From contig CAZJWJ010000006.1 in the NCBI GenBank assembly GCA_964549495.1, positions 22,274 to 86,273 of the forward strand: 64,000 bases of DNA, in the 5' to 3' direction. This stretch comes from an uncultured Anaerolineales bacterium (GTDB taxonomy: Bacteria; Chloroflexota; Anaerolineae; Epilineales; Epilineaceae). Of the stretch, positions 1-63,237 are shown in pieces (the first letter of the stretch is position 1; every line of letters begins with the position of its first letter). The notes beneath the pieces are model-generated. The model ran no database searches and was not told where the DNA came from. It saw only the letters and a program-made list of their open reading frames with translations. A program made the position numbers and the translations under genes.

Positions 1-1482
1 CCCACATCGGGGTCGTCGCCGGAGCCTGGCGTCAGCCCGACGGTGGAGCCAGGACCCAGCGAGACAGCGATCTCGACGTCGACCGCGAGCCCGGGCCCGA
101 GCGCGACCCGGACGCCGACATCGGAGCCGACCGGAACGCTCGTCCCGAGCACGCCCACAGGCATGGCGCGGCCCAGCGCCACGTCGACCCTCGAGCCGCC
201 ACAGCGCACGCCGACCGACGACGCCGACGCGCTGGGGAGGCGCATCCTGCTGCCCTTCCTGATCACCCGCCGAGCCGGAGGTTCGGACTTCGCTTCACCT
301 GCGGGTCGTGCGCCCATCACATCGTCGATGCAGCCGTGGACCGGGGACGCTTCGAGTTTGAAGGGCGCAGACGCCAGGATCGCATCCGGCGACCCGGCCA
401 CGACGACCGCGTCCGCGCCGGCCATCGCCGAGCGCCCGGAGATGCCCTTTGCGATGAGCCTGGTCGTGGACGCCGTCGGCGCGCCGCATGCACTTTGGGA
501 GGAGGCCGGCCGCATCCTGCACAGCCGCCGAACGGCCGGCGGCGGGTGGTCCGAGGCCCGGCGGGTGGCGACCGGTTCGGAACCGGTGGCCAGCCTGGCG
601 GCAGACGGCGGGCTGCATCTGCTGATCGCCAACACCTTCGATGGCAATGGCGAGATCTATCACCTGCGTTGGGATGCCGAGGCCGAAGGCTGGGGACTGC
701 CGGTCAACGTCAGCCAGACCGAGGCCTTCTCGGTGGCGCCGGCCCTGATCGACGGCTCGCCCGAGCGGCCGCTCCTGGCCGCCTGGACCGAGCTGCGCGC
801 AGCCGGCCCGCTGGTGCACCAGGCCTACTGGCAGGCGGGGCGCTGGCATCACGCGCCGGTCTTGCAGGCCCGCGGCCAAGGCGCTGCGCTGGCCCGTGCT
901 GGGCAGCGCGCCTTCCTGGCCTGGCACGAGCGCGCATCGCGACAGGAGCCCTTCGCGGTCTACGGCATGCCCCTCGAGCCCGAGGCCTTGCCCGAGGCGA
1001 TCTCGGAGGCCGAAGGCCAGGAGGCCACGGCCGCGGCACTTCACGCCACCGCTGACGGCCTGCTGCACGCCGCCTGGACCGAGTCGCGACCGGACGACCG
1101 CGCCCTGCAGTACAGCCGACGCATCGGCGAGCGCTGGGACCGCGTGCAGACCTTGGCCGAGCAGGGCGCCGAGGCTCCGCGCATGCTGCCGGGCGCCGAC
1201 CGCCCGCCGGTCCTGGTCTGGCCCGACGGAGCGCGCATCTGGCTGGCCCGCGGCCAAGGCGAGTTCCGATGGCACATCAGCGCCCCGGCGCCCAGCGAAC
1301 CGGCCGGCCGGCTAGGACCCGTCGCGGCGGCGCGCGATGCTGCGGGCGGCGTGCACCTCGTCTGGTCCGAGCCGGCGGGCGTTGGCGCGATGCTGCGCTA
1401 CGCGCAAGTGGTAGACGTCCCGCCGGCCCCGGAGTGTCAGGTGAGTTGCGCCTACCTGCCGCTACTGCTCGGCGGACGCTGA
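1..1482 (+). CDS. Secreted repeat protein, 5'-partial (N-terminus off-window); Pro/Thr linker then beta-propeller-like W-repeats
   Basis: Frame 1 has no stop from nt 1, so track start 43 is only the first in-frame start. It opens in a P/T/S-rich linker, followed by RRILLPFLITRR (241-273). About six degenerate repeats follow (YHLRWD, LLAAWTE, AFLAWHE, LHAAWTES, VLVWPDG, VHLVWSE). It ends CAYLPLLLGGR* (1447-1479). Confidence 0.6.
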   Translation, partial: PTSGSSPEPGVSPTVEPGPSETAISTSTASPGPSATRTPTSEPTGTLVPSTPTGMARPSATSTLEPPQRTPTDDADALGRRILLPFLITRRAGGSDFASPAGRAPITSSMQPWTGDASSLKGADARIASGDPATTTASAPAIAERPEMPFAMSLVVDAVGAPHALWEEAGRILHSRRTAGGGWSEARRVATGSEPVASLAADGGLHLLIANTFDGNGEIYHLRWDAEAEGWGLPVNVSQTEAFSVAPALIDGSPERPLLAAWTELRAAGPLVHQAYWQAGRWHHAPVLQARGQGAALARAGQRAFLAWHERASRQEPFAVYGMPLEPEALPEAISEAEGQEATAAALHATADGLLHAAWTESRPDDRALQYSRRIGERWDRVQTLAEQGAEAPRMLPGADRPPVLVWPDGARIWLARGQGEFRWHISAPAPSEPAGRLGPVAAARDAAGGVHLVWSEPAGVGAMLRYAQVVDVPPAPECQVSCAYLPLLLGGR

Positions 1483-1509
1483 ACCGTACGGGTCCCGATC
1501 GGGATCTCG

Positions 1510-3391: not shown

Positions 3392-3468
3392 GCTCAGGCG
3401 CGAGAACGTGAAGGCAGCAAACCGGTGCGATCCGAGATCGCCGACGGCTGGACGCCGAGGAGCATGGG

Positions 3469-3906: not shown

Positions 3907-6030
3907 TCACCGCGTGAGGTAGGGCAGCGAGAGCGAGTACCATGAATCCGGCATCGGGCTGGCGGGTTCGAGACCGATGCGGAGCTCATGGAATGTGTTG
4001 CCGCTGAAGATGACGCCAAGTCGTTGACCACCCTCTGATGGAATCAACCTGCCGTAGCCGATGCCTGGCATGATCTCGGAACGCGATGTGGGTCGGGTCG
4101 GATTCGAAAAGTCTATTGCCCAAATGCGAGCTTCGTTTCGACTCCAGTTGTTCGGTCCGACCGGAATCCTGAAGTAGCCGGAAACGAATGCACGAGCACC
4201 ATCAAGCGCAACCGACGCCAGGAATGGTGCGTTGCCCAGATCATCCCGAATCATGTGTTTCCCGATGATCCTCGGCCCACGGACGTCGAAGAGAAGTACA
4301 GCGTCTTCACTTGGCGAGAGTACGGCCAACAGGTTCTTCTGCAAGTCAATATCGCTGATGACCGGAATCGTTGAGATGGTGCTGCGGAGCATCGGTTGCC
4401 CATCGTCCAAGATATCGACGATGTGCACGATTCTGCGGTCCGCGGTACCCGTAGGACTCCCACTTACGAGGATCGCCAGCATTCGTCCGACTGCCTGGAT
4501 TCGAAGACCCATGCCTACCGGGCCGGGGTGTTCCAGATTCAATCTCCCCAACTCGCCCAACGAGCCAAATGGCGAGTGCTCCCAGACGCGAAGGTTGAAG
4601 GTATCAGCGTAGTCTGACTCAACGGTGACGAAGCCTCGGTCCCAAGTAGCAACTGCCTGGACTTCTTTCGAGTCCGGCAAGAGAACTATCCGTGTCGGGC
4701 CCGGAACCGGTCCGGCAATATCGACGATCGCCACCTGACTCCATGGCGCAGAATCATTCTGGAACTCATTGCCTGTGGTAATAGCTGCGTATGCCCAATC
4801 TTCAGAGCATGCGACCGTGTCCCATATTTGTTCTCCCATGTACTCGAGATCTGACGATGTTGATGCCGGTGGTTCGGCAACCGAATCGATGAGCCATGCG
4901 CGCTGTTCCCAATTGAATGCGAGCCAACGATTCCCGATCGGGCATACTCCACTCGGCGCGAGAAGCAGCTGGGTCGTTCTCAAATGCACCGGATTCGGCA
5001 GATCACCAATATCAATGGATTCGATGCCATACGTACGAGCAGTGAGAAGCAGATCGCCGATATAGGCTGATGCTCTGGGCAACGTGAGTCCAGGAAGCTC
5101 GATTTTTGCGATGGGTTGTGGACTCGCAGGTTCGGACACGTCGATCAATTCGAGTGAATATGCCGTTCGAAGTAGACCCGAGCCGTGCGCCACGGTGACG
5201 ATCGCAGCATTGGGACTGACTCCAAGAAGGTGAACCCTGTCCGAGCGCTCGAGAACACCCGTGCCTGCTACTCGGATCGTTGTCGCATCGGATGCGTCCA
5301 TCATGATCAAGCATGGATCGAAACCACAGGTCTCATGCCGTCCGATTAGAAAGATCCAGCTGTCGCGTGCTGCCACTGCCGTGGCTCCATACGAGTCCAG
5401 CTGAGCCGTGTCAAAGACGTTCGAGGGATCGCTGACATCGAGCGCGTGGAGAGAGGACTCCGTGAGATAGAGCAGCCGCTCCTGGGGGAGTATAACGGCA
5501 TCGAGAGCCCGCCCTGCCAGCGCCGTCGTTCCGATGACCGCGGGCGGCTCGAGCGGATCGACCGATACGATGCTGAGTCGATCGCTATCGATCACGTATG
5601 CGTTCAACGCAGCGCTTCCCATGATCGAGCCGAGTACTTCCACGCTATCGATCGTTCTAGGCTGGAGGGGATCAGCAATGGAAACGCGCCAGAGCTGGAA
5701 ATTGTTGCTCACGAGCAGCTGTCCAGCGGAAGTCTCGATGGAGGAGAGAAAGGCACCGTACTCACCGATGGGATCGGACATGCCCACAAGCATCGCTGCC
5801 TTCTCATCTGAGACGTCGAATACGAGGATGCGGTGGCCGGAGACTCCGTACACCAGGGAATCGACGGCAACCATGTCGAATAGCCCGCCGCCATACTCGT
5901 TGCTCTCGAGCACGATGGGCGGGTCGGATTGGTCGATCGAGCCGGGGGCATTGGCTGGTGCAACGGGCAACGCTGTCGCTGCCGAGGCGATGCTCAACGC
6001 GATCCCGATGAAGGCGAGGGCGGCATGCAT
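3907..6030 (-). CDS. Secreted LVIVD-repeat beta-propeller protein
   Basis: Signal peptide MHAALAFIGIALSIASAATA. Repeated h-x-h-D-h-S-D-P units (LHALDVSDPSNV, LELIDVSEPASPQPI, IESIDIGDLPNPV, VAIVDIAGPVP, IWAIDFSNPTRP). The track start at 6042 is TTG; ATG at 6030 has a TGGAG SD. Ends LSLPYLTR*. G+C is clearly lower than in neighbouring genes. Confidence 0.75.
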   Translation of the reverse strand: MHAALAFIGIALSIASAATALPVAPANAPGSIDQSDPPIVLESNEYGGGLFDMVAVDSLVYGVSGHRILVFDVSDEKAAMLVGMSDPIGEYGAFLSSIETSAGQLLVSNNFQLWRVSIADPLQPRTIDSVEVLGSIMGSAALNAYVIDSDRLSIVSVDPLEPPAVIGTTALAGRALDAVILPQERLLYLTESSLHALDVSDPSNVFDTAQLDSYGATAVAARDSWIFLIGRHETCGFDPCLIMMDASDATTIRVAGTGVLERSDRVHLLGVSPNAAIVTVAHGSGLLRTAYSLELIDVSEPASPQPIAKIELPGLTLPRASAYIGDLLLTARTYGIESIDIGDLPNPVHLRTTQLLLAPSGVCPIGNRWLAFNWEQRAWLIDSVAEPPASTSSDLEYMGEQIWDTVACSEDWAYAAITTGNEFQNDSAPWSQVAIVDIAGPVPGPTRIVLLPDSKEVQAVATWDRGFVTVESDYADTFNLRVWEHSPFGSLGELGRLNLEHPGPVGMGLRIQAVGRMLAILVSGSPTGTADRRIVHIVDILDDGQPMLRSTISTIPVISDIDLQKNLLAVLSPSEDAVLLFDVRGPRIIGKHMIRDDLGNAPFLASVALDGARAFVSGYFRIPVGPNNWSRNEARIWAIDFSNPTRPTSRSEIMPGIGYGRLIPSEGGQRLGVIFSGNTFHELRIGLEPASPMPDSWYSLSLPYLTR

Positions 6031-6188
6031 GTGGCGCTCCAATCTGCAGAGTCATGGTCGAGGCGTGACGTGGTCAGCAGGTCGTCACGTGGAGCGCGAT
6101 ACTTGCAGCCGGTATCGGATTCGGAGGGTCTTGTGTCGCGGAACGGGTGGCGCGAGCCGGGACACGGGCATGCATGCCCAGCCGCCGA

Positions 6189-8658: not shown

Positions 8659-8889
8659 TGCAGCATCGCCTTCAGGGTGACGCCGCGCGCGCGGATCGGG
8701 TCGGATTCGCCCGCAGGCCGTAACGACCCGCGCGCATTTCGCGTTAGAACACTCTGCCCTGCGCCGTCTCTCCGGCGCGATGCCCGAAGCGCGTACCCGT
8801 TCATCATCCATATCTACCCCCACCTCGATACCCGGTCGGGTCTGGCTCGTGCCGGGTGGAGAACGCGCAGAAAGAGGAGAGACCACGCC

Positions 8890-10434
8890 ATGCGCCTTCC
8901 AAGAATCGTCATGGTCATCGGTTGGGTGGGCATCCTGCTGTCGACGGCAGCGGTGTCCCTCGTGCCCATGGCCGGCCAGGGCTCATCCGCACAGGCAGCG
9001 CCCGCCGCGCTGCCCCTACAGCAGGGTGTCAACGTCAGCGGCATCGTCACCTCGGGTCAGGGAACCTGCTTCCCGGATGCGGTGCTGATCGACTGCAACG
9101 GCACCGCCACCCATCAGCTCCGGGGCCCGGCCGGCTCGGGCTTCTTCACCCCCTACTACAACCAATGGGTCGACATCAGCGGGGCGGTTGCGCAATGCGC
9201 CGCCGGCGACGACTACGTCAACGTCGTCTCGATCAACCCGGGCACCAACCCTTGCGGTCCGCAGCAGCCCACCGCCACCACGGCTCCGGGTCAGCCGACG
9301 GCCACGCCCGTTCCGGGCCAACCGACCGTCACCCCCATCGCCACGGCTCCGATCAGCGGCAACCTGGCCACCGGACGGTCGGTCTTCGCCTCTTCGACCC
9401 AGTCCAGCCATCCGCCCGAGCACGCGGTGGACGGCGATTTGAACACTTGGTGGGCCTCGCTGCCCGGCCGCGATCCCTATCTGGCGGCCCAGAATCGGCA
9501 GTGGATCTACGTCGACCTGGGCTCGCCGCAGCAGGTGACCGACTTCAACCTGACCTGGGGCGACCAGTACTACGCCCGCGGCTACGGCATCTACGTCTGG
9601 GGCGACTGGTGCCGCGGCTGGTGCCACCTCGGCTCGACCAGCTACGGTGACGGCGGCCTGGACGACTGGCAGACCAACGGTCCGGGCGTCGAAGGCCAGT
9701 ACTTCATGTTCTACCTGATCAACCCGGCTTACATCGGCTGGCATTACGAGCTCAAGGAGATCGAGATCCTGGGCGCCGGCGCGGTGCCGGCCGGCTCGAC
9801 CAACGTCGCCTCCGGCAAGGCCTCGGTGGCCCTGAGCCAGGAAGCCGGCTACCCGGCCGGCAACGCCACCGACGGCGATCTGGTCACCGAATGGCGCACC
9901 GCCGCCAACGGCGTGCCGACCTGGCTCTATGTCGACCTGGGCACGACCATGATGGTCGACCGGGCCGTCTTGCGCTGGTCGCCCGGCCTGCACGCCACCG
10001 ACTACACGCTCTACTCCTGGAACGGCCGCAACTGGGTTGCCATGCACACCCAGAGAAGCGGCCAGGGCGGTGACGAGACCGCCAGCTTCTGGGCCGTCCA
10101 GACCCGCTACGTGCTGCTGTATGCCAATGCCGGCGCCAGCAGCCAGGTGGGCCTGCGCGAGCTGGAGGTCTACGAGCGATCCAGCTCCGGTGGTGGCGGC
10201 GGAGGCGGCAACCCGCCGCCGCCCAACCCACCGCGGCCGCCCACGCCCTTCCTCTTCGAGGGTCGGCTGGACGCCGCCAGCGGCCGCCTGGCCGCCCGCC
10301 CGCAGGTCATGCCCCGGGGCCTGGACCTGCCGGCCATCGGCCAGATCCAGCAAGACCTCGAGCAGTTCGGAACCGACGTCTTCGACGCCGTCGATGGCTT
10401 GGGCCTGCCCATCCCGGGCAGCGCCACGGAGTGA
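8890..10434 (+). CDS. Secreted protein with two F5/8 type C (discoidin) domains
   Basis: Real start is MRLPRIVMVIGWVGILLSTAAV (AGGAGA SD); the track start at 8677 is an upstream extension. Two discoidin-like units (NLATGRSVFASS..HAVDGDLNTWWAS and NVASGKASVALS..NATDGDLVTEWRTA), a PT linker, and a poly-Gly/Pro tail. Confidence 0.8.
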   Translation: MRLPRIVMVIGWVGILLSTAAVSLVPMAGQGSSAQAAPAALPLQQGVNVSGIVTSGQGTCFPDAVLIDCNGTATHQLRGPAGSGFFTPYYNQWVDISGAVAQCAAGDDYVNVVSINPGTNPCGPQQPTATTAPGQPTATPVPGQPTVTPIATAPISGNLATGRSVFASSTQSSHPPEHAVDGDLNTWWASLPGRDPYLAAQNRQWIYVDLGSPQQVTDFNLTWGDQYYARGYGIYVWGDWCRGWCHLGSTSYGDGGLDDWQTNGPGVEGQYFMFYLINPAYIGWHYELKEIEILGAGAVPAGSTNVASGKASVALSQEAGYPAGNATDGDLVTEWRTAANGVPTWLYVDLGTTMMVDRAVLRWSPGLHATDYTLYSWNGRNWVAMHTQRSGQGGDETASFWAVQTRYVLLYANAGASSQVGLRELEVYERSSSGGGGGGGNPPPPNPPRPPTPFLFEGRLDAASGRLAARPQVMPRGLDLPAIGQIQQDLEQFGTDVFDAVDGLGLPIPGSATE

Positions 10435-19117: not shown

Positions 19118-19211
19118 GGTCCATGTCCTCGATCATCGCTGGACGTTCGCGGGTCCACTCGTGTGCGCGTCGACGGTCGATGCCGAACACGGCTCCGCCT
19201 CTCGCCACCGC

Positions 19212-25602: not shown

Positions 25603-25894
25603 CGGGCTGGGCTTCCTTTCCTGGGCATCCGCGGCGCCGGGCCACCTCGGAGCGCTGGCGGGCTGAGGTTGCCGCACATTGTATCGCATGCGACGATTCC
25701 TGTGAGGCCCTCGAGCGTCGTGCGGCGGTTAAGCTTCCTTCACCCCAGCGGCTTCTCGAGGCTGCGGCATCTGGTCTCGAAGCCGGTTCTTCGCAACCGA
25801 CGGGCCGAGCGCCGCGTAGAGTTCACCATCGATCCACCCGGCCGCGCATGCCCTTCTTCGACCCGCGCGGTCCAGATCCCGAGGAGGAGATCCC

Positions 25895-32598: not shown

Positions 32599-32751
32599 GT
32601 CGGTCTCCTTGCAAGATCGGCCTGCGAACGGTAGGGGATCCACTGCGGCGGTGCAGTACGCTCGACGTCGAGATGCGCGCCGGGCTTTCAGGGTAAGGGC
32701 TCGTCGCCTCGAGGTCCCGGCGGACGGGAGCGATTGCACCCTGGATCTACC

Positions 32752-45107: not shown

Positions 45108-46639
45108 TGGACCCGCTTCGTTGGCCGAGCTGCGAAGTCGCGGCATACCTCGCGCCGCGCCTCCTGCGCTTGGCGATGCTGGCCGCTGCCTTGGTCGCCG
45201 CCCCCCAAGGCGGTCATCCGGTCGCGGCTCAGGACCTCACCGAAGACGAAATCGAGGTGGCGAGCTTCGACGGACGTCGACTCCAGGTCGGAGCGGAGCT
45301 CGACTACTCGACGCTGGCCGAGGCCCTGTCCGAGGCGCGGGACGGCGATCGCATCGAGGTCCATGGTGGCCATCACACCGGGCCCTTCGCCATCGACGTG
45401 GCCATCGCGCTGGTCGGCATCGACCGGCCGGTGCTCGACGGCGGCGGCGAGGGCGACGTGCTGCGCCTGGGCGCGGCGCCGTCCCGCGTGGCCGGCTTCG
45501 AGATCCGGGGCAGCGGCGATCGCAACGACCGCGAGGATGCCGGCATCCGGGCCGATGCCGGGCCGGTCTCCATCGAGGACAACCACCTGGTCGACGTGCT
45601 CTACGGCATCAACCTCAAGCAGGCGCCCGGCAGCTTGATCGCCCGCAACGTCGTGCGGGGCCGCGACATCCACATCGCCCGCCGCGGCGACGGGATCCGC
45701 ATCTGGGAGAGCCACGGCACGCGCATTCTCGACAACCGGGTCGAGGCCGGGCGCGACGTGGTGATCTGGTATTCCGAGGACCTCTTGATCCGCGGCAATA
45801 CCGTGCGCGACGGGCGCTACGGGCTGCATTACATGTACTCCCACGCCAGCCGCATCGAGGCCAATCGCCTCGAGCGCAACGCGGTGGGCGCCTTCCTGAT
45901 GTACTCCAAACAGCTGCTGATCGAGGGCAATGCGATGACCGGCAACCACGGCCCCTCGGGCTACGGGCTGGCGCTCAAGGACAGTGACGACATCCAGGTG
46001 ATCGGCAACGTGATGGCCGGCAACCGGGTCGGCCTCTACCTGGACGGTACGCCCTCCAGCCGCGAGGCGCAGGGCATCGTCGAGCGCAACCACCTGGCCT
46101 ACAACGACATCGGCGCCCTGCTGCTGCCGGCGGTGAAGCGCAACCGCTTCGCGGCCAACAGCTTCGTCGAGAACGGCCAGCAGGTGGCGCTGACCAGTCG
46201 CGGCTCGGCCGATGGCAACGACTGGACGCCCGACGGCCGGGGCAACTACTGGAGCGACTACGCCGGCTACGATGCCGACGGCGATGGCCTGGGCGACTTG
46301 CCCTACCAGCCCGCCAGCCTCTTCGACGACCTGTTGACGCGCCAGCCCGAGCTGCGGCTCTTCAGCATGAGCCCGGCCCAGGGCATGCTCGACCTGGCCG
46401 CCCGGGCCTTCCCGGTCTTCCGCCCGCCGGCCATCCTGACCGACGCTGCCCCGCGCACCCGCCCCCTGCCCTCGCCCGTGGCGGCTCCAGAGCGAAAGGG
46501 AGGACCGCTGGTCGCATTGGCCCTGGGCCTGGTGGCCTCGGCGGCACTCCTGATCGCGTGGGGACGAGCCCTGGACGCGACCACGCCCGGGCGCGAGCGA
46601 CCGCGCGCGCTGCCCGAGCCCACGAGGATCCGACCATGA
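45107..46639 (+). CDS. nosD: NosD periplasmic beta-helix accessory protein
   Basis: Parallel beta-helix repeats NHLVDVLYGINL, GDGIRIWESHGTRILDNRV, GRYGLHYMYSHASRIEANRLERNAVGAFLMYS, GYGLALKDSDD. The start overlaps the nosB stop (TGATG). Confidence 0.9.
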   Translation: MDPLRWPSCEVAAYLAPRLLRLAMLAAALVAAPQGGHPVAAQDLTEDEIEVASFDGRRLQVGAELDYSTLAEALSEARDGDRIEVHGGHHTGPFAIDVAIALVGIDRPVLDGGGEGDVLRLGAAPSRVAGFEIRGSGDRNDREDAGIRADAGPVSIEDNHLVDVLYGINLKQAPGSLIARNVVRGRDIHIARRGDGIRIWESHGTRILDNRVEAGRDVVIWYSEDLLIRGNTVRDGRYGLHYMYSHASRIEANRLERNAVGAFLMYSKQLLIEGNAMTGNHGPSGYGLALKDSDDIQVIGNVMAGNRVGLYLDGTPSSREAQGIVERNHLAYNDIGALLLPAVKRNRFAANSFVENGQQVALTSRGSADGNDWTPDGRGNYWSDYAGYDADGDGLGDLPYQPASLFDDLLTRQPELRLFSMSPAQGMLDLAARAFPVFRPPAILTDAAPRTRPLPSPVAAPERKGGPLVALALGLVASAALLIAWGRALDATTPGRERPRALPEPTRIRP

Positions 46640-52076: not shown

Positions 52077-52988
52077 TCACCGAGATGTCGAATCCTCATC
52101 GGAGGCCGGCGCGCCGTCGAGCGCGCCGGCCTCTCGCGCCAGCAGCCGCAGCAGCAGGACCAGGTAGATCAGGCCGCCGGCGAACATGATCCAGCCGCCG
52201 AGCCGCTGGTCGGCCAGGGCGCTCATGCCCCACAGCCCGGTGGAGCGCGCGGCGTACCAGGGGTAGAGCGGCCGGGCGGAGAAGATCAGGGCCAAGGCCA
52301 CCAGCATGCCGGCCATGCTGCTGGCGAAGCAGAGGCCGTAGACGGCGTGGCTGCTGCCCGATCGTCGATCTCGATCGCCCGGAGACTCGCCGAGCCCTCG
52401 AAGCACCAACCACCAGAAGGCCATCGCGCTGCCCAGCATCAAGAGGTGCTCGGCCCCGTGAATCGGCCGGCTGCGCAGGGCGGCGTCGTAGGCCGGCGGC
52501 AGATGCCAGACCAGCAGGTTGAGGTTGAAGACCAGGCCGACCAGCCAGGGCCGGCGGGCCGGGGCCAGCAGGCGGCCGATCCAGCGTTCCAGCTCCGGTC
52601 GCGGGCCGGCCAGGAGGCCGGGCAATGCCTGCCGGGCGACCGCCAAGGGGCGCGCATAGAAGAGCAGCGGCGGCGCGATCTGCAGCAGGACCAAGTGCTG
52701 CACCATGTGCGCCGCCAGGGCGTCGTCGCTGTAGACCTCGATCGGCCCGCCGAAGGCGACGGCCAGCGAGGTCAGGCCGGCCAGGAAGGCCAGGAGATGG
52801 CGGATCCCGAAGGCCCGCTCGGCGGATGCCCGGCGCCAGGCCCAGAAGTAGGCCAGGCCGGACAGCGCCACGAGCAGTGCGAGCCCGGGTGCCAAGGCCA
52901 GGATCGGCCAGTCGCCGGTACCGCTGGTATGCGCCGGCCCGGCGCGGGGCCCGAAAGCCAGCGGCCCGGCGGGATTCCATCGGCTCAT
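52077..52988 (-). CDS. ctaG: CtaG-type (Bacillus caa3_CtaG family) cytochrome oxidase assembly factor
   Basis: Polytopic membrane protein with AAHMVQHLVLLQIAPPLL, VWHLPPAYDAAL, HGAEHLLMLGSAMAFWW, ADQRLGGWIMFAGG. The start MSRWNP at 52988 is in frame with the track ORF, whose first 54 aa are rejected. Confidence 0.8.
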   Translation of the reverse strand: MSRWNPAGPLAFGPRAGPAHTSGTGDWPILALAPGLALLVALSGLAYFWAWRRASAERAFGIRHLLAFLAGLTSLAVAFGGPIEVYSDDALAAHMVQHLVLLQIAPPLLFYARPLAVARQALPGLLAGPRPELERWIGRLLAPARRPWLVGLVFNLNLLVWHLPPAYDAALRSRPIHGAEHLLMLGSAMAFWWLVLRGLGESPGDRDRRSGSSHAVYGLCFASSMAGMLVALALIFSARPLYPWYAARSTGLWGMSALADQRLGGWIMFAGGLIYLVLLLRLLAREAGALDGAPASDEDSTSR

Positions 52989-53113
52989 GCGTTCAGAACT
53001 CCCTGCACGGTTCGGATATGCGAGCAGGCGCCGAGGCGCTTGTCGCCGGACCGTGTCGAGGTGTCGACATCGAGGCTTCGGCCAAGGCACGGAGGTGCTT
53101 CGTGAAGGATAAC

Positions 53114-55015
53114 ATGCCCGTCCGATCGAGTCGCTGGCGACGTTGGGCATTGCTGCTCGGCGTCGCCGGCTTGCTGTTCGGCCTTTCGGCCTGCCAGAAT
53201 CCTGCAGCCCAGCCCGAGGCGACGCCGGCCGTCGATTCGCCGTCCGAAGATGCGGCCGCAGATCCAGAGTCAGATCCGGCGACCTCGGACGAGGGCTCCG
53301 GTGACGCCGGTCCGCGTTCCAGCTCGGATGAGCCCGCGGCAGAGGCGGTCGACCTGGCCGCGATGGATGCCGAGTGGCCGACCGAGATGCTCAACGGCGA
53401 GGCCGGGCCGACCAAGAGCACCGTTCTCGACGCCATCCGCGCGCGCGACCTGCCGGAGACCTTGCCCTTGACCGAGGACTTCGCCGGCGAGGACTTTGCC
53501 GGGCGCCCGCTGATCGAGACGGCGCGCGAGTCGGGTATCGTCATCCTTGACTGGCCGCCGCCCTCGACCAGCGATCTGCCCGGCGATCGGTGGGCCGAGC
53601 GATTCGAGGCCTGGCTGGCCGAGTTCGCCGAGATCGAGCATACCGAGATCCACACCTGGGAGATCCAGCAGCTGGATCGCCCCGATGTCGAAGCTGCCAT
53701 CGAGGTCGTCGAGGCGCTCTGGGTGGTCGGCACGACGCCCGAGGGGCGCCGGCGCGAGGATCGGCTCTACCTGGTCTTCGACCTGATCAAGGATCCGACG
53801 CTGGTCGAGGTAGCCGATGCCGAAGATCAGGCGACCACGCAAGAATCCGAGGAGGCGGCCTCGGAGCCGGAGGACCTCGGCTGGCGCATCGCCGGAGTGC
53901 GCAGTCGCGAGGGCCGGACGGTGATCGCCGAGGGGCGCTACTTCCAGGACGTGACCGAGCAGGTCTTGCCGGGCGGCTACGATCAGTCGGGCGCCGAGGT
54001 CTATACCGCGGCCGGCCCCGCGCTGGGCGACTTCGACGGTGACGGCGACCTGGACCTGTTCATGCCGCGCATGCACGCGCCGATGCGGCTATACGCCAAC
54101 GACGGCAGCGGCCGCTTCCGCGATGTCACCGAGGACTGGGGGCTGCTGGATCGGCGCAGCCTGGAAGGCAGCATCAGCGGTGCCTTCGCCGATGTCGACC
54201 AGGATGGCTTGCGCGACCTCATGGTGCTCTTCCAGGGTCGCGGCCTGCGCGTCTACCGCAACGAGGGCAGCGCCTTCCGCGACATCACCGGACCGGTCGA
54301 TCTGGCCGGACCGGGCCAGTGGCAGACCCTGTCGGTGGCCGACGTCGACGGTGACGGCTTCCCGGATGCCTACCTGACCAACTACAACCTCATCGACACG
54401 ACGCATCAACCCGAGAACTATGTCGATGCCACCGACGGCCTGCCCAACGTGCTCTTGCGCAACACGGGTGATGGCGGCTTCGAGGATGCGACCGAAAGCC
54501 TGGGCCTGGACGTCGACAACCGGCGCTGGACCTACGCCTCGGCCTTCGCCGACTACGACGCCGACGGCGATGTCGACCTCTATGTGGCCAACGACTACGG
54601 TCCCAACCACCTCTTCGAAAACGATGGCGAGGGGCGCTTCCGCGACGTGACCGAGGCCTTGTCGGCCACCGACCAGGCCAACGGCATGGGCGTCAGCTGG
54701 TTGGACTTCGATGGCGACCTGGACCTGGATCTCTACATCTCCAACATGCAGAGCTTCGCCGGCAACCGCATCACCCGCCTGGAGCACTTTCCGGGTAGCG
54801 GCGAGCAGTCGGCGCTCTACCGGCGCTTCTCGCAGGGCAGCACGCTTCTCCGCAACGACGGCGACGATGGATTCACCGAGTGGAGCGAGCAGGCCGGCGT
54901 CAAGGCCGCCTTCTGGGCCTGGGGCGCGGCGCCCTTCGACTACGACGCCGACGGCGACGAGGACATCTTCAGCGCGGCCGGCTTCTACACCGGGCCCAAC
55001 GCGGCCGACACCTGA
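53114..55015 (+). CDS. CRTAC1/ASPIC-like lipoprotein with FG-GAP/VCBS repeats; reading frame ends at in-frame TGA 55013-55015
   Basis: Lipobox LLFGLSAC. Repeats GDFDGDGDLDLFM, ADVDQDGLRDLMV, ADVDGDGFPDAYL, ADYDADGDVDLYVANDYGPNHLFENDG, LDFDGDLDLDLYISN, FDYDADGDEDIF. The track start at 52625 (antisense to ctaG) is rejected. Confidence 0.75.
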   Translation: MPVRSSRWRRWALLLGVAGLLFGLSACQNPAAQPEATPAVDSPSEDAAADPESDPATSDEGSGDAGPRSSSDEPAAEAVDLAAMDAEWPTEMLNGEAGPTKSTVLDAIRARDLPETLPLTEDFAGEDFAGRPLIETARESGIVILDWPPPSTSDLPGDRWAERFEAWLAEFAEIEHTEIHTWEIQQLDRPDVEAAIEVVEALWVVGTTPEGRRREDRLYLVFDLIKDPTLVEVADAEDQATTQESEEAASEPEDLGWRIAGVRSREGRTVIAEGRYFQDVTEQVLPGGYDQSGAEVYTAAGPALGDFDGDGDLDLFMPRMHAPMRLYANDGSGRFRDVTEDWGLLDRRSLEGSISGAFADVDQDGLRDLMVLFQGRGLRVYRNEGSAFRDITGPVDLAGPGQWQTLSVADVDGDGFPDAYLTNYNLIDTTHQPENYVDATDGLPNVLLRNTGDGGFEDATESLGLDVDNRRWTYASAFADYDADGDVDLYVANDYGPNHLFENDGEGRFRDVTEALSATDQANGMGVSWLDFDGDLDLDLYISNMQSFAGNRITRLEHFPGSGEQSALYRRFSQGSTLLRNDGDDGFTEWSEQAGVKAAFWAWGAAPFDYDADGDEDIFSAAGFYTGPNAADT

Positions 55016-56875: not shown

Positions 56876-56882
56876 TCGGGGT

Positions 56883-57343: not shown

Positions 57344-59575
57344 ATGCCCGCGCCCCACCCCTTGCCAGCCTCTGACACCCTTCCCGCCACGCTCGCACGG
57401 CACACCCCGCCCGAGTCCCTTCGATTCGCGTCCTCCGTCCGGTCTCCGCTCTGGATCCCGATCCTCTTCCTCGTCACCCTCGTCTCGTCGAGCATCTTCT
57501 TCATCTCGCTGCATGCACCGACGGTCGGCCGCGCCGCGTCGGAGGTGCCGGCGAGTTCCGACCAGTCTTCGGTCTCGAGCCCGTCGGAGCTGGCGACCAC
57601 ACGCCTGCTCTGGCTGCCCGAGATGGGGGACGAGGTTGCCGGTTTGGACTGTCAGAAGCTCGTCACCGTGCAGAACATGGGTCACGATCCGAGCAAGGCG
57701 GTCCTCGTCACCTGGGATGCGCCGGGGACCTGTCCGCCGCTGGCCAACGGTCCGCTCAAGGTCGAGTGCAGCGGACTGATCCGGCCGGGGCGCACGTGGA
57801 TCTTCATCGGCGCCCAGCTGCCCGCCGGCGCCCAAAGCGGGCTGGTCCTCAGCTTCATCGCCAGGCGCCTCTCGGAGCTGGGGCTGGACTTCAGCTTCGA
57901 CGACCTCGCGTCGGACATGATGTGCGAAACGCTCTTCTTCGAAGTCACCGGCGATGCGGACGACTATCGGCGCTTCATCGAAGCCTATCGCAGTGGTGGG
58001 GACTTCGGCGGCATCCCGCAGGAGCGGGTCTGGGGCGCGCCCCTGGCCGTCGAGCTGCAGCGCAGCTGCGAGCATCCGATCGATGCCGGCGGCCCGCGCG
58101 AGAGCCGTCTCGCCGCCATCGCGGCCTGGGAGGTCGAGCGCTTCTCCAACGCTGCCGGAGTGTACCGCTACTTCGCGCCGCTGGCGCCGCGGCCGCCGGG
58201 CGTGGCCGTCGCGAGCCTGTCGATCCAGAATGTGGGCCTGGAATGCGCCATCGCGGAGCTGACCGTCCGGGCCCATGCCCGTCCGACCGATGCCGAGCGA
58301 TGTCGCTTCGATATCGGCGCGCTCGCGCCGGGCGAGCGGCAGCGTGTGGATCTCTCGAGCTGTGGCGCCGGAGTCGGCGGGGCGGCCGCGGCTTGGATCC
58401 GGGGCAGCCAACCCCTGGCCATCCTGGTCGACGTCGTGGAAGACGCGGGGATGAGCAGCTACACCGCCCTGCCGATCCCGCCGGATGCCGCGGGAGACAT
58501 CGGCCCGTCGGCGGAGCTCCCGGGGACGCGATACCTGGCGCCCATGGCCTTTTACGAGCACTTCGGCTGGTCCAGTCGCGTTCATCTGCAGAACGGCGAC
58601 AGGGATCGCCCGGCACGGGTGCGCCTGAGCGTCAAGGACCGCAGCGGTCGGGTGCTGACGAGCCTGAACGTCGAACTGCCCCCGGATGCGGGTCGGGTCG
58701 TCGACCTGACCGAGATCGATGCCATGCCCGACAGTTGGATCGGCAGCCTGCTCGTCGAGAGCCTGGCAGCGGAGGGGTCCGGGGACTCGGATGCACCGCC
58801 GGCCATCTCGGTGGTCGTGGAGAGCCTGCGGAGGACCGAGGACGGTGCGGTGACCGGGTCCGCCGCCTACGGGCTGCCGCCGGCCCGCCTTCCCGGCGCG
58901 CCGGCCGACCAGATCGGCGCGGGGATGATCGCCATCCCGTCCATCGTCAAGGGAGATCCGGAGGCCGGCGAGCCCACCACCGAGATGGCCATCGCGAACC
59001 TGGTCGAGAGCGCTGGCAGCACCGACCTGGTCTTCCTGATCTATGATCAGAATGGCCTCTCGGACTTCATCTGCCAGACGCTGTCCGCCGAATCCGTCGA
59101 GTATATCGACCTGACCACCTGGGGCATCATGGGCCACGGCTTCAAGGGTAGCGCGATCATCAGCGCTACCGGGTGGCACCATCCCGTCCTGGACCGCGGT
59201 GGTGAGATGGTGGCCAATCCCCTTGGCCTGGCGGCCGTCACGATGCTCCGGCCGCCGCGAGGTAACGCCGTCCTGGGTGAACTGCCCGGTGATGGGCCGG
59301 CCGCCGCGCGCTACGGCATCCCCATCCCGCCCAGTGCCCGGGCTGGTTACCGCCCGGAGTTCAGCCTGGCTCTCTGCGGCTTGGATCTGCTCCCGGCGAC
59401 GACGCCCACCGCCTGGCCGCCCGCGCCAACGCTGTCGCCCGCGCCCACCCGGCCCGGTGGGCAGCCGACACCGGAGCCGAGCCCGACCGTCCCGCCGAGC
59501 CCGAGCGCGACGGAGGACGGCCCGCGCCGCGATCCGATCTTCCTGCCCCTGTTGTCGCTCCCGGATGCGCCCTGA
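57344..59575 (+). CDS. Anchored/secreted protein with four beta-sandwich-like repeats (paralogous to 30643-32598) and C-terminal PT linker
   Basis: N-terminal TM LWIPILFLVTLVSSSIFFISL. Repeat cores LVTVQNMGHDPSKAVLVTW, LSIQNVGLECAIAELTV, RVHLQNGDRDRPARVRLSV, MAIANLVESAGSTDLVFLIYDQNG. PT linker PPAPTLSPAPTRPGGQPTPEPSPTVPPSPS, then PIFLPLLSLPDAP*. Confidence 0.7.
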   Translation: MPAPHPLPASDTLPATLARHTPPESLRFASSVRSPLWIPILFLVTLVSSSIFFISLHAPTVGRAASEVPASSDQSSVSSPSELATTRLLWLPEMGDEVAGLDCQKLVTVQNMGHDPSKAVLVTWDAPGTCPPLANGPLKVECSGLIRPGRTWIFIGAQLPAGAQSGLVLSFIARRLSELGLDFSFDDLASDMMCETLFFEVTGDADDYRRFIEAYRSGGDFGGIPQERVWGAPLAVELQRSCEHPIDAGGPRESRLAAIAAWEVERFSNAAGVYRYFAPLAPRPPGVAVASLSIQNVGLECAIAELTVRAHARPTDAERCRFDIGALAPGERQRVDLSSCGAGVGGAAAAWIRGSQPLAILVDVVEDAGMSSYTALPIPPDAAGDIGPSAELPGTRYLAPMAFYEHFGWSSRVHLQNGDRDRPARVRLSVKDRSGRVLTSLNVELPPDAGRVVDLTEIDAMPDSWIGSLLVESLAAEGSGDSDAPPAISVVVESLRRTEDGAVTGSAAYGLPPARLPGAPADQIGAGMIAIPSIVKGDPEAGEPTTEMAIANLVESAGSTDLVFLIYDQNGLSDFICQTLSAESVEYIDLTTWGIMGHGFKGSAIISATGWHHPVLDRGGEMVANPLGLAAVTMLRPPRGNAVLGELPGDGPAAARYGIPIPPSARAGYRPEFSLALCGLDLLPATTPTAWPPAPTLSPAPTRPGGQPTPEPSPTVPPSPSATEDGPRRDPIFLPLLSLPDAP

Positions 59576-59697
59576 GGCAGGGCTCTGTCAGGAGTCGCCC
59601 CGACCATCAATCCGCCTGTCCATTTTCGACATCTTGGTGTGTTGTATGATGGAGCGTGGATGCGTCGAAGCGATGTGAGCTGCAAGGAGGCTGCCCC

Positions 59698-62600
59698 ATG
59701 GACCCGCGACCCGAGCCGGCGAGGCCCCGAAGGTCGATCCTGCTGCTGTTGATGCTCGGTGTGGCCAGCCTGGCCGCCGCGCTGGGCGCACCGGCGGCGC
59801 CGATGCGCGCTGCCGACGTCGACCAAATCGACGCGGCTTGCCGCGGCATCAACCCCTTCGTGGCCGTCAGCCTGATCGAGTCGCATGCCGAGATCGAGCA
59901 GGCAGGGGCGGGGGGTGCCGACGCGGCGGCCATCCTGGCGGTGCGCGACGATCCGGCGGACGATCCGGCCGAGCAGATGGTTCTGGCCAGACGCAGCCAG
60001 GTCGGTTCGGTCTACGGCTTGGCCTACGATGCCGGCCGCAGGCAGCTCTACGCCTCGGCCTTCCTGCGCCGGTCGGCGCCCTTCGGGCCGGCTGGCACCG
60101 GCGCCATCTACCAGATCGACCTGGCCAGCGAGGACGTGTCCCCTTGGCTGCAGATCGAAGCCGGCGAGGATCCCCACGACGCCAAGGGCGACGACCTCTC
60201 GGCCGAGCGCTGGGTGGGCAGCCGCGGCCTGGGCGACATCGAGATCGACGCCGAGGGCGACCAGCTCTTCGCGGCCAACCTCTACGACGGGCGGATCCAC
60301 CGCCACGCCCTGGCCGACGGCCGCGCGCTGGGCAGCTTCCGCAACGGAGGCACCGACGAGCGCTGGTACCATCGGGCCCGGATGTTCGGCCTGGCCTACG
60401 GGGAGGGCTGGCTCTACCACGGGCTGGTCGACATCTCCGACGGCGAGGACGACCGCGGTCCCACCGCCCACGTCTACCGCTCGCGGCCGGACGGCAGCCA
60501 GATGACCGAGATCCTGAGCTTTCGGCTCAATGATCACCGACCGGTCTGGCTGCCGGGCTGGCAGGAGGGCGCTCCCATCCTGACCGACCTGGAGCTTCGG
60601 CCGGGCGGCGGGCTCGTGGTGGCCCTGCGCAACCGGGCGCTGGACGCCCTGCCGGCTTCGGCTTACGGAAACACCTACATCCTGCCCCTGGGTCAGATCG
60701 TCTCGGCCGAGCCCAACGAAGCCGGCCAGCTGGTGGTCTCCGAGGACCTCTCGGCGGCCGAGCCGGCCAACACCGGCAGCCTGGCCCGCCTGCCGGGCCT
60801 GGACGTGCTGGTCTCGCCGGTGCGCGCGATCGGACCGAGCATCCCCGTCGGCGGCCCGCAGCGGCCCAACGTGCCCGCCGTCCCCAGCACGCGCCTGTCC
60901 TGGCTGGGCCTACCCAACCCGCATGTCCTGCGCGAGGAGGCGCTGTCCTTCCAGGAGGGCCTGACCGGCGCCGTGGCCACCGGTGACGTCGAGGTGCTCT
61001 GCGCCACCGAGCCCGGCCTGGACCCGGAGCGGGGCGCCACCGCCACCGCCGAGGTGGGTCGGGCCGGTACCGCCACCGTCCAGGTCATCGAGACCCGCGC
61101 GGCGGCCACCGAGACCGCCTGGGCGCCGACGGCCACCGCCTATGCCACGCGCTTTGCCAGCACGGCCACCGCCGCGGCGGCCACGGCCACCGCCAATGCG
61201 GCGCGCATCGGCACGCCGGCGGCGCGCAACCGGGGCCTCATCGAGGCCGCCTGCGAGGGTTCGGACCCCTTCTATGCCATCCCGCGCTTCGCCTACAGCC
61301 GTGACCCCTTCCCGGTGCCGGGCTCGGCCGAGGCCGAGTCGCCGGCCATCCTGGCCTTCAACCGCCACGGGCACAAGCTGACCCTGGCCGAGCAGGGGCA
61401 GGTGGGCACGCTCTACGGAATGGCCTACGACTGGCGGCGCGGGCACATCTATGCCGGCTCTTACCACAGCGTGGCCGGCCTGGTCGGGCCGGCCGGCGGC
61501 GGCGCCATCTACCGCCTCGACCTGGAGACCGGCTTGGTCGGCGCCTGGCAGCTGGAGAACACCGGACCGGCCATCTACCAGCAGCAGCAACCCGGCGGCT
61601 ACGTCAACTCGCCCTGGGCCGGCAAGGTGGGCTGGGGGGACCTGGAGATCAGCGAAGACGGTGGGTCGCTCTTCGCGGTCAACCTCTACGATCGGCACGT
61701 CTACCGCTTTGGCTTGCCGGACGGCCAGCGGCTGGACCGCTTCGCGCACGGCGCCCAGGGCGAGGCCTGGGCCATCACCGCGCGGCCGATGGGACTGGGA
61801 TTCCGCGAGGGCCGGCTCTACCACGGCGTCGTCGATACGGGCGAGCTGTCCGGCAGTCCCTTCGAGGCCAAGATCTACGCATCGCTGCCCGACGGCAGCC
61901 AGATGCGCGAAGTGGCCAAGGTCGAGCTGGACTACCCGCTCTATGCCGGCACCGGCCGCCGCTGGCAGGCCTGGAGCGACGCGCCGAACTACAATAGCCC
62001 CAGCGCCCTGTTGTCCGACATCGAGTTCAGCGACGGGGGCGACATGGTGCTGGGCCTGCGCGACCGCTCCGGCGACGCGCTCTTCGGCCTGCGCGGCCAG
62101 GGCGATGTGCTGCTCGGCCGGCGCGAGGGCGAGGGCTGGCGCATCCAGACCGTGCCGGAGCATTACACCGACCAACACCTCTACGACGAGAGCTCGCTGG
62201 GCGCCCTGGCGCCGGTGCCGCGCTTGGACCAGTTGGTGATGAGCGCTACCGCACCGGAGCATCCGCGCAGCGTTGGCGCCGCCTGGCTGAGCCACACCAC
62301 CGGCAGCTGGCTGCGCGGAAAGACCTTGGTGACCAACCAGCAGCTGGTCGTGGCCGGCCTGCCTATCCATCGCAAGTTCCCCGGCAGCCTGGGCGACGTC
62401 GAGCTGCTCTGCCCGCCCGACGAGCTGCCGCCGACCCCAACCCCGACCGCGACGCGAACGGCGACCCCAAGCCCAACCGACACGCCGACCGCCACCCCGA
62501 CGCCCACCTGGACCCCCAGCCCTGCCCCGACCTGGACGCCGAGCATCACCCCGACCTCGACGCCCGTCCCGAAGCCGATCTACCTGCCCCTCATCTACCA

Positions 62601-63237
62601 ACGCTTCTGCGTGCCCTACGAGGCCCGCGTCGACGTGGTCCTGGTCATCGACCTGTCCACCTCGATGCAGCGCGAGACCCGCGGCGGCCGCAGCAAGCTC
62701 GAGGCGGCCCTGGACGCGGCCGGCCTCTTCGTGGCCCAGATGCGCCTGGAGCCGGACCCGCGGGGCCGCAGCGACCGCGTGGCGGTGGTCGGCTTCAACG
62801 ACCGCGCCTGGCTGGCCACGGGCCTGACCCGCGACCCGGGCATCATCGGGGCGGCCATCGCCGGCCTGCCCGACGGCTCGGCCCAGGGCACGCGGCTCGA
62901 CTTGGGCTTCCTCCAGGGCCAGGCGGCGCTGGATGCCGGCCCGCCGGCCGAGGGCAGCCAGCCCATCCTGATCCTCCTGACCGACGGCCTGCCCAACCGC
63001 GTCCCCACCCCCGAGGGCGGCGGCGGCCAGGAGGACACGGTCCTGGCCGCGGCCCAATCCGTCCGCGCCGCCGGTACCCGCGTCTTCACCATCGGCCTCG
63101 GCCAGCCCGAGGAGGTCCCGCGCGAGCTCCTCTCCCGCGCCGCCTCCGACCCGGCCGACTTCTTCTTCGCCCCGGACGGCGAGGACCTGGCGGCGATCTA
63201 CCAGGCCATCGCGGGGAGGTTGGTCGGGTGTCCGTGA
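59698..63237 (+). CDS. Large secreted protein: tandemly duplicated ~400-aa domain, PT linker, YLPL tag, C-terminal vWA domain
   Basis: Start MDPRPEPARPRRSILLLLMLGVASLAAALGA (AAGGAGG SD). Two homologous units (AACRGINPF...VGSVYGLAYD...GAIYQIDL...GDVEVLC and AACEGSDPF...VGTLYGMAYD...GAIYRLDL...GDVELLC). PT linker. PIYLPLIYQRFC (62575-62610). MIDAS VVLVIDLSTSM...LLTDGLPNRVP...VFTIGLG. Ends LVGCP*. Confidence 0.8.
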   Translation: MDPRPEPARPRRSILLLLMLGVASLAAALGAPAAPMRAADVDQIDAACRGINPFVAVSLIESHAEIEQAGAGGADAAAILAVRDDPADDPAEQMVLARRSQVGSVYGLAYDAGRRQLYASAFLRRSAPFGPAGTGAIYQIDLASEDVSPWLQIEAGEDPHDAKGDDLSAERWVGSRGLGDIEIDAEGDQLFAANLYDGRIHRHALADGRALGSFRNGGTDERWYHRARMFGLAYGEGWLYHGLVDISDGEDDRGPTAHVYRSRPDGSQMTEILSFRLNDHRPVWLPGWQEGAPILTDLELRPGGGLVVALRNRALDALPASAYGNTYILPLGQIVSAEPNEAGQLVVSEDLSAAEPANTGSLARLPGLDVLVSPVRAIGPSIPVGGPQRPNVPAVPSTRLSWLGLPNPHVLREEALSFQEGLTGAVATGDVEVLCATEPGLDPERGATATAEVGRAGTATVQVIETRAAATETAWAPTATAYATRFASTATAAAATATANAARIGTPAARNRGLIEAACEGSDPFYAIPRFAYSRDPFPVPGSAEAESPAILAFNRHGHKLTLAEQGQVGTLYGMAYDWRRGHIYAGSYHSVAGLVGPAGGGAIYRLDLETGLVGAWQLENTGPAIYQQQQPGGYVNSPWAGKVGWGDLEISEDGGSLFAVNLYDRHVYRFGLPDGQRLDRFAHGAQGEAWAITARPMGLGFREGRLYHGVVDTGELSGSPFEAKIYASLPDGSQMREVAKVELDYPLYAGTGRRWQAWSDAPNYNSPSALLSDIEFSDGGDMVLGLRDRSGDALFGLRGQGDVLLGRREGEGWRIQTVPEHYTDQHLYDESSLGALAPVPRLDQLVMSATAPEHPRSVGAAWLSHTTGSWLRGKTLVTNQQLVVAGLPIHRKFPGSLGDVELLCPPDELPPTPTPTATRTATPSPTDTPTATPTPTWTPSPAPTWTPSITPTSTPVPKPIYLPLIYQRFCVPYEARVDVVLVIDLSTSMQRETRGGRSKLEAALDAAGLFVAQMRLEPDPRGRSDRVAVVGFNDRAWLATGLTRDPGIIGAAIAGLPDGSAQGTRLDLGFLQGQAALDAGPPAEGSQPILILLTDGLPNRVPTPEGGGGQEDTVLAAAQSVRAAGTRVFTIGLGQPEEVPRELLSRAASDPADFFFAPDGEDLAAIYQAIAGRLVGCP

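Follow-up and report, generated by a model that had tools for sequence, protein, structure and literature searches.

A Leu-Pro tag of secreted proteins in Anaerolineae-type Chloroflexota, a possible docking or retention peptide at the ends of Pro/Thr-rich stalks

Secreted proteins of Anaerolineae-type Chloroflexota carry a short peptide, here called the tag, which is a real, autonomous short linear motif. It was found in a stretch of 64,000 nucleotides (the window) from an uncultured Anaerolineales bacterium (GenBank assembly GCA_964549495.1, contig CAZJWJ010000006.1, positions 22,274 to 86,273 of the forward strand), where eight copies are distributed over seven proteins (A, B, C, E, F, G, and H; Table 1). 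The consensus of the tag is [Y/F/W]-L-P-hydrophobic-hydrophobic-x-[K/R]; Arg or Pro often stands before it, and an acidic residue or the end of the chain often follows. Its existence, enrichment, position, conservation, independence from the neighbouring folds, and alternation with known anchor domains are demonstrated. Regarding its function, the sequences tentatively suggest an autonomous peptide for docking or retention, located where Pro/Thr-rich (PT) stalks have their far end and lacking a membrane helix, a reading to which we give slightly less than an even chance.

The window proteins amount to about 21,400 amino acids, at a G+C content of about 69% for the window. A preliminary description of this DNA had listed eight instances of one pattern. 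Translation returned exactly these eight peptides, from seven open reading frames (ORFs), with TGA directly after each of the four terminal copies (A, B, E, and G). As instances of a single pattern the eight do not fully hold, since the copy of B (SLPYLTR) falls outside the regular expression then given, while fitting the broader consensus, and the terminal copy of G has no Arg. The core [YFL]LP[LIFW][LIV] has 10 matches in the window proteins, compared with 1.09 ± 1.07 in composition-preserving shuffles, and 10 or more were reached in 0 of 1000 shuffles. Seven of the 10 are copies of the tag, that of B not being among them; the other three are unrelated background, located in the conserved C-terminus of an ICMT-family methyltransferase (27382-27396), in a membrane segment (44847-44861), and in a NurA nuclease (19269-19283). 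Signal-peptide-like N-termini are found in B, C, E, F, and H and an N-terminal helix in G, the N-terminus of A being cut off by the window. The shuffles and these N-termini bear out the proposal that the tag is non-random and tied to secreted proteins. A Pfam VWA domain (von Willebrand factor type A, vWA) lies directly C-terminal to the tag in C, F, and H, and E has a weak VWA_2 match at its N-terminus. In the terminal copies of the window at most 9 residues follow Leu-Pro, which leaves no room for a membrane helix. The tag codons of the window differ synonymously, which places selection on the peptide rather than the DNA; a DNA-level element or recombination site is ruled out by the same variation.

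The positional bias of the tag is seen most clearly at a larger scale. Species-representative genomes were scanned with three window cassettes (C, F, and H), which returned 76 loci, nearly all from metagenome-assembled genomes (MAGs) of Anaerolineae, Anaerolineales, Ardenticatenales, Caldilineae, and Candidatus Epilinea, with at least ten loci each from several single MAGs. In most of the tblastn alignments the first residue is the Tyr of the tag itself, and the alignment runs to the Cys-Pro that closes the vWA domain. From the window and the 76 related loci, 643 ORFs (309,000 amino acids) that showed a coding-type periodicity of G+C were pooled. In this set the strict tag pattern has 180 matches, compared with 83 ± 9 in shuffles. 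Ninety-two of them stand before a vWA signature, and 24 lie at most 20 residues from a stop, where 2.3 ± 1.6 are expected (maximum 7 in 200 shuffles; binomial 3e-16). The other 64 do not exceed chance, and the excess is therefore entirely positional, confined to vWA junctions and C-termini, an enrichment on which the preliminary description had made its case depend. Tag-vWA cassettes were also observed on two contigs labelled as non-Chloroflexota, L048 (a 'delta proteobacterium' MAG) and L069 (a 'Gemmatimonadaceae' MAG); these could reflect mis-binning or horizontal transfer.

The two favoured positions differ in their conservation. Among 139 non-redundant junctions the motif is P-T-P-x-P-x-P-[ILV]-Y(0.84)-L(0.93)-P-[ILV]-[ALT]-[LV]-[RK](0.59)-E(0.54)-x-C(0.81)-x-P, in which the frequency of 1.0 for Pro is imposed by the search pattern; R/K, E, and C occupy positions +6, +7, and +9, at a fixed spacing to the Cys of the vWA domain. 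The terminal motif is less strict: R-x-[Y 0.41 / F 0.30 / W 0.19]-L-P-[WALY]-[LAV]-x-[KR]. A relaxed pattern gave a C-terminal set of 61 matches, some of them chance hits, in which the chains end 2-13 residues after the Pro and, counted from the aromatic residue, are most often 7, 9, or 11 residues long. Of the 55 matches that extend as far as +6, 24 have Lys or Arg there. The length of 7 residues occurs in 11 of the 61, most of which end on Lys or Arg at +6, in line with the claim that the stop often comes right after this residue; chains ending exactly there include YLPVLLR, FLPWLGR, WLPLALR, FLPLVSK, and YIPIVIK. Lys takes the place of Arg in apparently lower-G+C relatives (YIPIVIK, YLPLMSK), and these variants, together with the synonymous codon variation, indicate that conservation is at the protein level and is not an artefact of high G+C. 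Modification of the Tyr by O-glycosylation or sulfation is unlikely because Phe and Trp freely replace it in terminal tags.

Besides junctions and C-termini, the tag is found in other contexts (related loci are cited by L numbers and homologous proteins by P numbers). It stands right behind the signal peptide in L062 and P0147, between two PT linkers in P0125, P0150, and L022, the analogues of the internal tag of A, ahead of non-vWA domains in L030 and L053, after three PKD domains in P0177, and after a PT linker in L050. The last two cases rule out the tag as a closing ('velcro') strand of the LVIVD propeller. The N-terminal and between-linker placements go beyond the preliminary description, as do the lineage-wide scale and the alternation with known anchors in homologues, described below.

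Structural predictions place the tag outside the folded domains. The vWA domains of C, F, and H score 116.6, 56.4, and 47.5 bits against Pfam VWA (cut-off 23.8), and the metal ion-dependent adhesion site (MIDAS; DxSxS...T...D, residues D33, S35, S37, T106, and D136) is invariant in A1. The H cassette was modelled with AlphaFold from an alignment of 42 sequences. Its vWA core has a predicted local distance difference test (pLDDT) score of 94-98, while the decapeptide of the tag is predicted as coil with a score of about 65, which does not exceed that of the preceding PT linker. With a probability of 1.0 the model matches BatB and integrin I-domains, and it also matches pilus-tip vWA adhesins; a PDB sequence search with the cassette gave no match at E<=1e-5. 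Tandem vWA proteins (P0002-P0005 and P0013) have no tag between vWA1 and vWA2, their boundaries being Cys...Cys. The coil prediction and these tag-free boundaries rule out an integral N-terminal (N-cap) strand of the vWA fold, which had been one of the initial suggestions. The full-length model of G (31 sequences, mean pLDDT 77) leaves the terminal tag as coil at pLDDT 34-38, with no docking within its own chain. The segments that open the four repeats of G are predicted strands (LLWLPEM 88, YFAPLA 276, YLAPMA 397, and IAIPSI 529), as had been supposed.

Some further observations concern these domains. The vWA cassettes of the window (23650-24243, minus strand; 36119-36760 and 62608-63234, plus strand) and of loci L002-L077 are bordered by an N-terminal Cys and a C-terminal Cys-Pro, and by analogy with the A domains of von Willebrand factor (VWF) the border Cys residues probably form a closing disulfide. 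The cassettes of relatives often end in ..CP..(F/Y)WGGR, and tandem vWA-vWA versions also occur. G (57344-59575, plus strand) and D (30643-32739, minus strand) are paralogues, each built as an array of beta-sandwich repeats. The model of G resembles TM1070 (1nc7), with a TM-score of 0.62-0.73 on the target, and more weakly the arrays of macroglobulin domains, whereas Pfam gives a weak ASRT match for D. Homologues reach 1200-1300 amino acids with varied C-terminal modules (P-domain, LTD, dockerin).

Conservation of the terminal tag, one of the checks that had been suggested, was found in the homologues of both G and B. The closest homologues of G (45-47% identity; P0123 and P0124) end in APLYLPWLDPGP and PPLYLPWLDPGR, with the tails PLYLPWLDPGP and PLYLPWLDPGR, while their linkers have diverged. 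A second clade (P0157, P0159, and P0164) shares the end GRSAYLPAV(Q/H)(L/V)(D/N)R, its members ending in GRSAYLPAVQLDR, ...QVNR, and ...HVNR. Some relatives of G have two copies of the domain; in these, DGRSAYLPTLNVDEW...C opens copy 2 and the chain end is also RKAFLPALRSGD. The nearest homologues of B end in RIWLPLALR and in RVWLPWLRS...

Alternation with recognised sorting and anchoring modules is the main, if circumstantial, argument for a role of the tag in sorting, retention, or docking. An exhaustive HMMER search with B gave 149 homologues, and all ten of those scanned are LVIVD-repeat propeller proteins; PMC2447325 is a literature match for LVIVD repeats in cell-surface proteins. Their tails were sorted with a C-terminal pattern classifier. 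About 35 have tails like the type A sorting domain of the type IX secretion system (T9SS), TIGR04183 being confirmed in both members tested (the remote homologues P0204 and P0213) and PF18962 in one of them (P0204); tag-bearing members match neither. About 14 have dockerin-like tails, with the GC-type dockerin NF041540 confirmed in two of four tested and Dockerin_1 on one of those two. Five have a ..FYRAV..P tail, and 16 the YLP tag; counted directly, the tag is present in 17 of the 149, compared with 3.2 in shuffles (maximum 10). E belongs to a widespread family with a vWA and a beta-sandwich domain, recovered by tblastn on the related loci (a word-indexed search returned E itself only). Its relatives continue after this body either with PT linker, tag, and vWA, the terminal tag of E aligning with ..FPIPEVEV..YLPxxxRxC followed by the vWA domain, or with a PT-linked, 75-residue Cys domain; E of the window ends with the tag alone. 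This agrees with the earlier notion that the tag ends one module and that the vWA cassette is an optional addition. The 75-residue Cys module, which thus takes the place of the tag-vWA ending in the family of E, was also observed after PT linkers at the C-terminus of D (30643-30873, minus strand), in L009 (three copies), in L027 (three or more), and in L075. It follows the pattern ..C..V.RRVPPAVIA.ALA.P....GW..L.NP..P....NP.R.CLS..DPGKP.HPLFN...FKAGCP, ending there, and has no Pfam or NCBIfam match.

No known signal accounts for the tag among those searched. Isolated tag tails gave nothing relevant against NCBIfam at E<=10, the carrier proteins matched none of the PEP-CTERM, GlyGly-CTERM, PGF-CTERM, MYXO-CTERM, and LPXTG-type NCBIfam families at E<=0.01, no Pfam match covered the tag, and full-text literature searches for the peptide strings and for Chloroflexi sorting signals returned no description of it. 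The sorting signal of Gram-positive bacteria is composed of a Pro/Thr-rich wall-spanning region, the LPXTG motif, a membrane helix, and a basic tail, and is recognised by sortase. Both signals are carried by secreted multidomain proteins in which a Pro/Thr-rich stalk is followed by a short C-terminal Leu-Pro motif, often with a basic residue after it. However, the tag is LP-h-h-x-K/R (h, hydrophobic), Thr-Gly is not found at +2/+3 after the Pro, neither membrane helix nor basic tail is present, many chains end on Lys or Arg, and the tag also occurs at N-terminal and internal positions. Likewise, the tag does not have the signature motif, membrane helix, and Arg/Lys cluster of the tripartite CTERM signals. 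The lack of tripartite architecture and of NCBIfam matches upholds the initial view that the tag is unlike LPXTG, PEP-CTERM, GlyGly-CTERM, and PGF-CTERM. Of the choice-of-anchor modules (T9SS type A C-terminal domain, GC-type dockerin, PEP-CTERM, and similar), the T9SS domain and the dockerin fill the C-terminal slot that the tag has in the propeller homologues of B, but such modules are folded domains of 55-80 amino acids or tripartite membrane signals, whereas the tag is a disordered peptide of 7-11 residues, also far too short for a dockerin or for the 70-100-residue beta-sandwich of the T9SS domain. We know of no cognate machinery for the tag.

Other systems offer partial parallels. Polymorphic proteins contain junction motifs that demarcate modules, such as VENN in CdiA and PxxxxDPxGL in Rhs. 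Like these, the tag is a short conserved peptide at which an optional C-terminal module joins diverse N-terminal bodies; unlike them, it has no DNA-level recombination signal, its module is an adhesin-type vWA and not a toxin, and it also occurs with nothing after it. The vWA and integrin I-domain adhesins (BatB, the integrin alpha1 I-domain, SpaC, and Mfa5) share the canonical MIDAS-bearing vWA domain, Cys-bounded as in the VWF A domains, but only the core fold matches, and the YLP peptide upstream of the first Cys had no counterpart among the solved structures searched. With chaperone-usher and type V pili the tag has in common a short, hydrophobic, strand-like terminal peptide resembling the first strand of a sandwich domain of the same family; in contrast to them, no incomplete fold or acceptor groove was detected, no same-chain docking is predicted, and the carriers have many folds.

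The docking or retention function that we infer, together with a binding partner, may be pictured as follows. The tag lies outside any folded domain, in extended flexible sequence, at the end of the stalk farthest from the main domains, and this at any of several sites: the extreme C-terminus, just past the signal peptide, between two linkers, or directly before a Cys-bounded vWA adhesin domain. There it would be recognised by a partner in the envelope, whether a receptor protein or a polymer, with strand addition or a hydrophobic groove as the probable mode of binding. The stalked protein, or its vWA module, would in this way be held at the cell surface, and the tag would serve, without a membrane helix, as a C-terminal sorting or anchoring signal does.

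Several points weigh against this proposal. No partner, receptor, or conserved neighbouring gene was found in the gene context of the window and the related loci, and five hydrophobic residues alone give only weak affinity. That the tag alternates with anchor domains is circumstantial evidence, none of these tails is present in about 80 of the 150 proteins that the search with B returned (B included), and the metagenomic homologues are proteins of unassigned taxonomy. The terminal tag is less strictly conserved than the junction tag, as the spread over Tyr, Phe, and Trp shows against the prevalence of Tyr at junctions; the stricter junction conservation could mean different roles, with the junction copy touching the vWA surface beyond the resolution of AlphaFold. 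Finally, the terminal tag in the G family is clearly related to the first strand of the duplicated domain copy (DGRSAYLPTL... at the copy, EGRSAYLPAV... at the chain end), a resemblance that fits an origin as a domain remnant.

It is important to consider this origin further. The Leu-Pro segment would then be the first element of the domain that follows the PT linker, and the terminal copies would be left after deletion of what lay downstream, kept as a linker cap or packed on the upstream domain, with no partner on another molecule. A similar strand does open the G-type domain (QVHLPILNF; for G, LLWLPEM is predicted as a strand), copy 2 of the two-copy relatives begins with DGRSAYLPTLNVDEW...C where the chain of single-copy relatives ends in EGRSAYLPAVQLDR, the duplication pattern of the G family favours this origin, the relatives of E have a vWA domain after the same tag, and the commonest stop position, +9, is that of the Cys in the junction version. 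Nonetheless, random truncation would not place stops 5-11 residues from Leu-Pro in many unrelated families (24 compared with 2.3 expected), terminal tags are kept between clusters while linkers diverge, the tag lies outside the vWA fold and is undocked in G, and the N-terminal and between-linker tags have no domain after them. A boundary remnant or structural cap is unlikely, though it deserves some weight. A further alternative is proteolytic processing, in which an extracellular protease would cut after the Lys or Arg at +6, leaving carriers that end in ...LP-h-h-x-K/R and releasing anything from a few residues to a whole vWA cassette. The basic residue at +6 (59% of junction tags and 24 of 55 C-terminal matches), the many proteins that end exactly on it, and the independence of the vWA cassette as a Cys-to-Cys unit beginning about 3 residues later are what such a cut would predict from the sequences. 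However, neither the window nor the related loci, in which no systematic protease search was made, show a protease gene accompanying the tag genes, many terminal tags (that of G included) have no Lys or Arg at +6, and chains already ending at +6 need no cleavage; transpeptidation is excluded for the latter because no leaving group remains. We consider processing quite unlikely.

The terminal tag might also act between molecules as a donor strand, entering the sandwich domain of a neighbour to form head-to-tail fibres or sheets. It resembles the first strand of the G-type domain (P0157 starts with ...QLFLPTMPLD..C and ends with ..SAYLPAVQLDR), the four repeat-opening segments of G are predicted strands, and a long flexible tether carries the tag. 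This is nevertheless improbable, given that AlphaFold leaves the tag of G unplaced although same-chain docking of donor strands is often modelled, that the modelled domains are complete sandwiches, and that the tag occurs on unrelated folds (LVIVD propellers, PKD, and vWA) with no obvious acceptor groove. Another assembly scheme, to which we likewise assign little probability, is that the tag forms half of a non-covalent, Chloroflexota-specific surface-assembly code: LP-h-h-x-K/R plus an acidic residue or the free C-terminal carboxylate would be the ligand of a dedicated receptor, so that tag-only and tag-vWA proteins could plug together and build an envelope layer. Candidate receptors would be the MIDAS site of vWA cassettes on other surface proteins, or the 75-residue Cys domain. 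The binding of the C-terminal carboxylate of C3b to the MIDAS of factor B is a precedent for such contacts. Binding of a junction tag to its own vWA domain looks geometrically impossible, since it stands two residues away from the Cys at the domain bottom, and tag-vWA binding would therefore have to be between molecules. As for chance or a compositional artefact, Leu, Pro, and Arg are indeed abundant in this high-G+C proteome and 3 of the 10 window matches are unrelated background, but composition-preserving shuffles never reach the observed counts, the distances to the Cys and the stop codon are fixed, and the motif persists with Lys for Arg in apparently lower-G+C relatives. The shuffle controls refute this explanation, which is hardly credible any longer.

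Table 1. Tag-bearing proteins of the window, with the positions of their tags and C-terminal vWA domains
Feature	Position	Strand	Remarks
Protein A	1-1482	+	5' end cut by window; Pro/Thr/Ser-rich region, internal tag, domain of about 400 amino acids without Pfam match, terminal tag
Internal tag of A, RILLPFLITRR	241-273	+	About 10 residues past a Pro/Thr-rich stretch; non-vWA region next
Terminal tag of A, CAYLPLLLGGR	1447-1479	+	Stop codon 1480-1482
Protein B	3907-6042	-	Secreted beta-propeller, related to LVIVD-repeat proteins
Terminal tag of B, LSLPYLTR	3910-3933	-	Weak variant; stop codon 3907-3909
Protein C	23647-25689	-	Signal peptide, vWA, beta-sandwich, PT linker, tag, second vWA
Junction tag of C, AYLPLVARRVC	24241-24273	-	Last Cys opens the Cys-bounded vWA cassette
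C-terminal vWA domain of C	23701-24219	-	Pfam PF00092, residues 491-663; DxSxS MIDAS motif
Protein E	32752-33867	-	Signal peptide, vWA-like domain, beta-sandwich, terminal tag; without PT linker or second vWA
Terminal tag of E, AFLPWLGR	32755-32778	-	Stop codon 32752-32754
Protein F	34997-36763	+	Signal peptide, N-terminal domain, PT linker, tag, vWA
Junction tag of F, IYLPILSERKC	36089-36121	+	From translation
vWA domain of F	36140-36694	+	PF00092, residues 382-566
Protein G	57344-59575	+	N-terminal helix, four beta-sandwich repeats, PT linker, terminal tag
Terminal tag of G, PIFLPLLSLPDAP	59534-59572	+	Stop codon 59573-59575; predicted disordered
Protein H	59656-63237	+	Signal peptide, two large N-terminal repeats, PT linker, tag, vWA
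Junction tag of H, PIYLPLIYQRFC	62575-62610	+	From translation
vWA domain of H	62632-63204	+	PF00092, residues 993-1183; integrin I-domain/BatB-like fold in AlphaFold model

Some neighbouring genes of the window are worth recording. The gene of B has G+C contents of 0.61/0.47/0.64 at the three codon positions, compared with 0.85-0.93 at the third position in its neighbours, and the 4-8 kb block of the window has 63.7% G+C against the window-wide value of about 69%; this low-G+C gene may be a recent acquisition, though it ends in a tag variant. A second secreted protein (28283-30502, minus strand) has a weak LVIVD match (E=6.9e-5), no YLP tag, and the end ...GRPLKPRR. Other tag-free genes of secreted or surface type include a NosD-like beta-helix, an FG-GAP repeat, and an F5/8 type C (discoidin) protein (45107-46636, 52625-55012, and 8677-10431, all on the plus strand). 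The NurA gene (19215-20315, minus strand) lies just downstream of the ORF at 17237-19132. Its product is a cytoplasmic protein whose C-terminal ..EVYLPLIARELG.. fits the junction consensus by chance. Two genes for membrane methyltransferases of the ICMT/PEMT family are present (26899-27411, plus strand, and 36770-37366, minus strand), one of them 7 bp from the stop of F and the other about 1.2 kb from C; the former gene in this list ends in ..KLLPWIGRRR, a chance match to the tag pattern. ICMT as a partner enzyme was rejected as a coincidence, since the related loci, about 1 Mb in all, gave no homologue in tblastn.

Soils, sediments, and wastewater reactors harbour abundant Chloroflexota, and to our knowledge almost nothing is known of how proteins are displayed on the unusual envelope of these bacteria. 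With eight copies in seven proteins of a 64-kb window and at least ten tag-vWA loci in single MAGs, the tag probably marks a large share of the surface proteome. It would be a variant of a surface-protein sorting or docking motif, with a modest chance of being something categorically new. If it is indeed a sorting or docking signal that works without a membrane helix, it would represent a new class among bacterial surface-display signals, and it would provide both a simple sequence rule for predicting surface proteins in Chloroflexota and a testable pair of tag peptide and receptor. Even as a mere domain-boundary element, the motif, ready for a hidden Markov model, and the 'PT linker-tag-Cys-vWA-Cys-Pro' cassette would help to annotate thousands of proteins that are now hypothetical or designated 'Mg-chelatase subunit ChlD' by the Joint Genome Institute (JGI).

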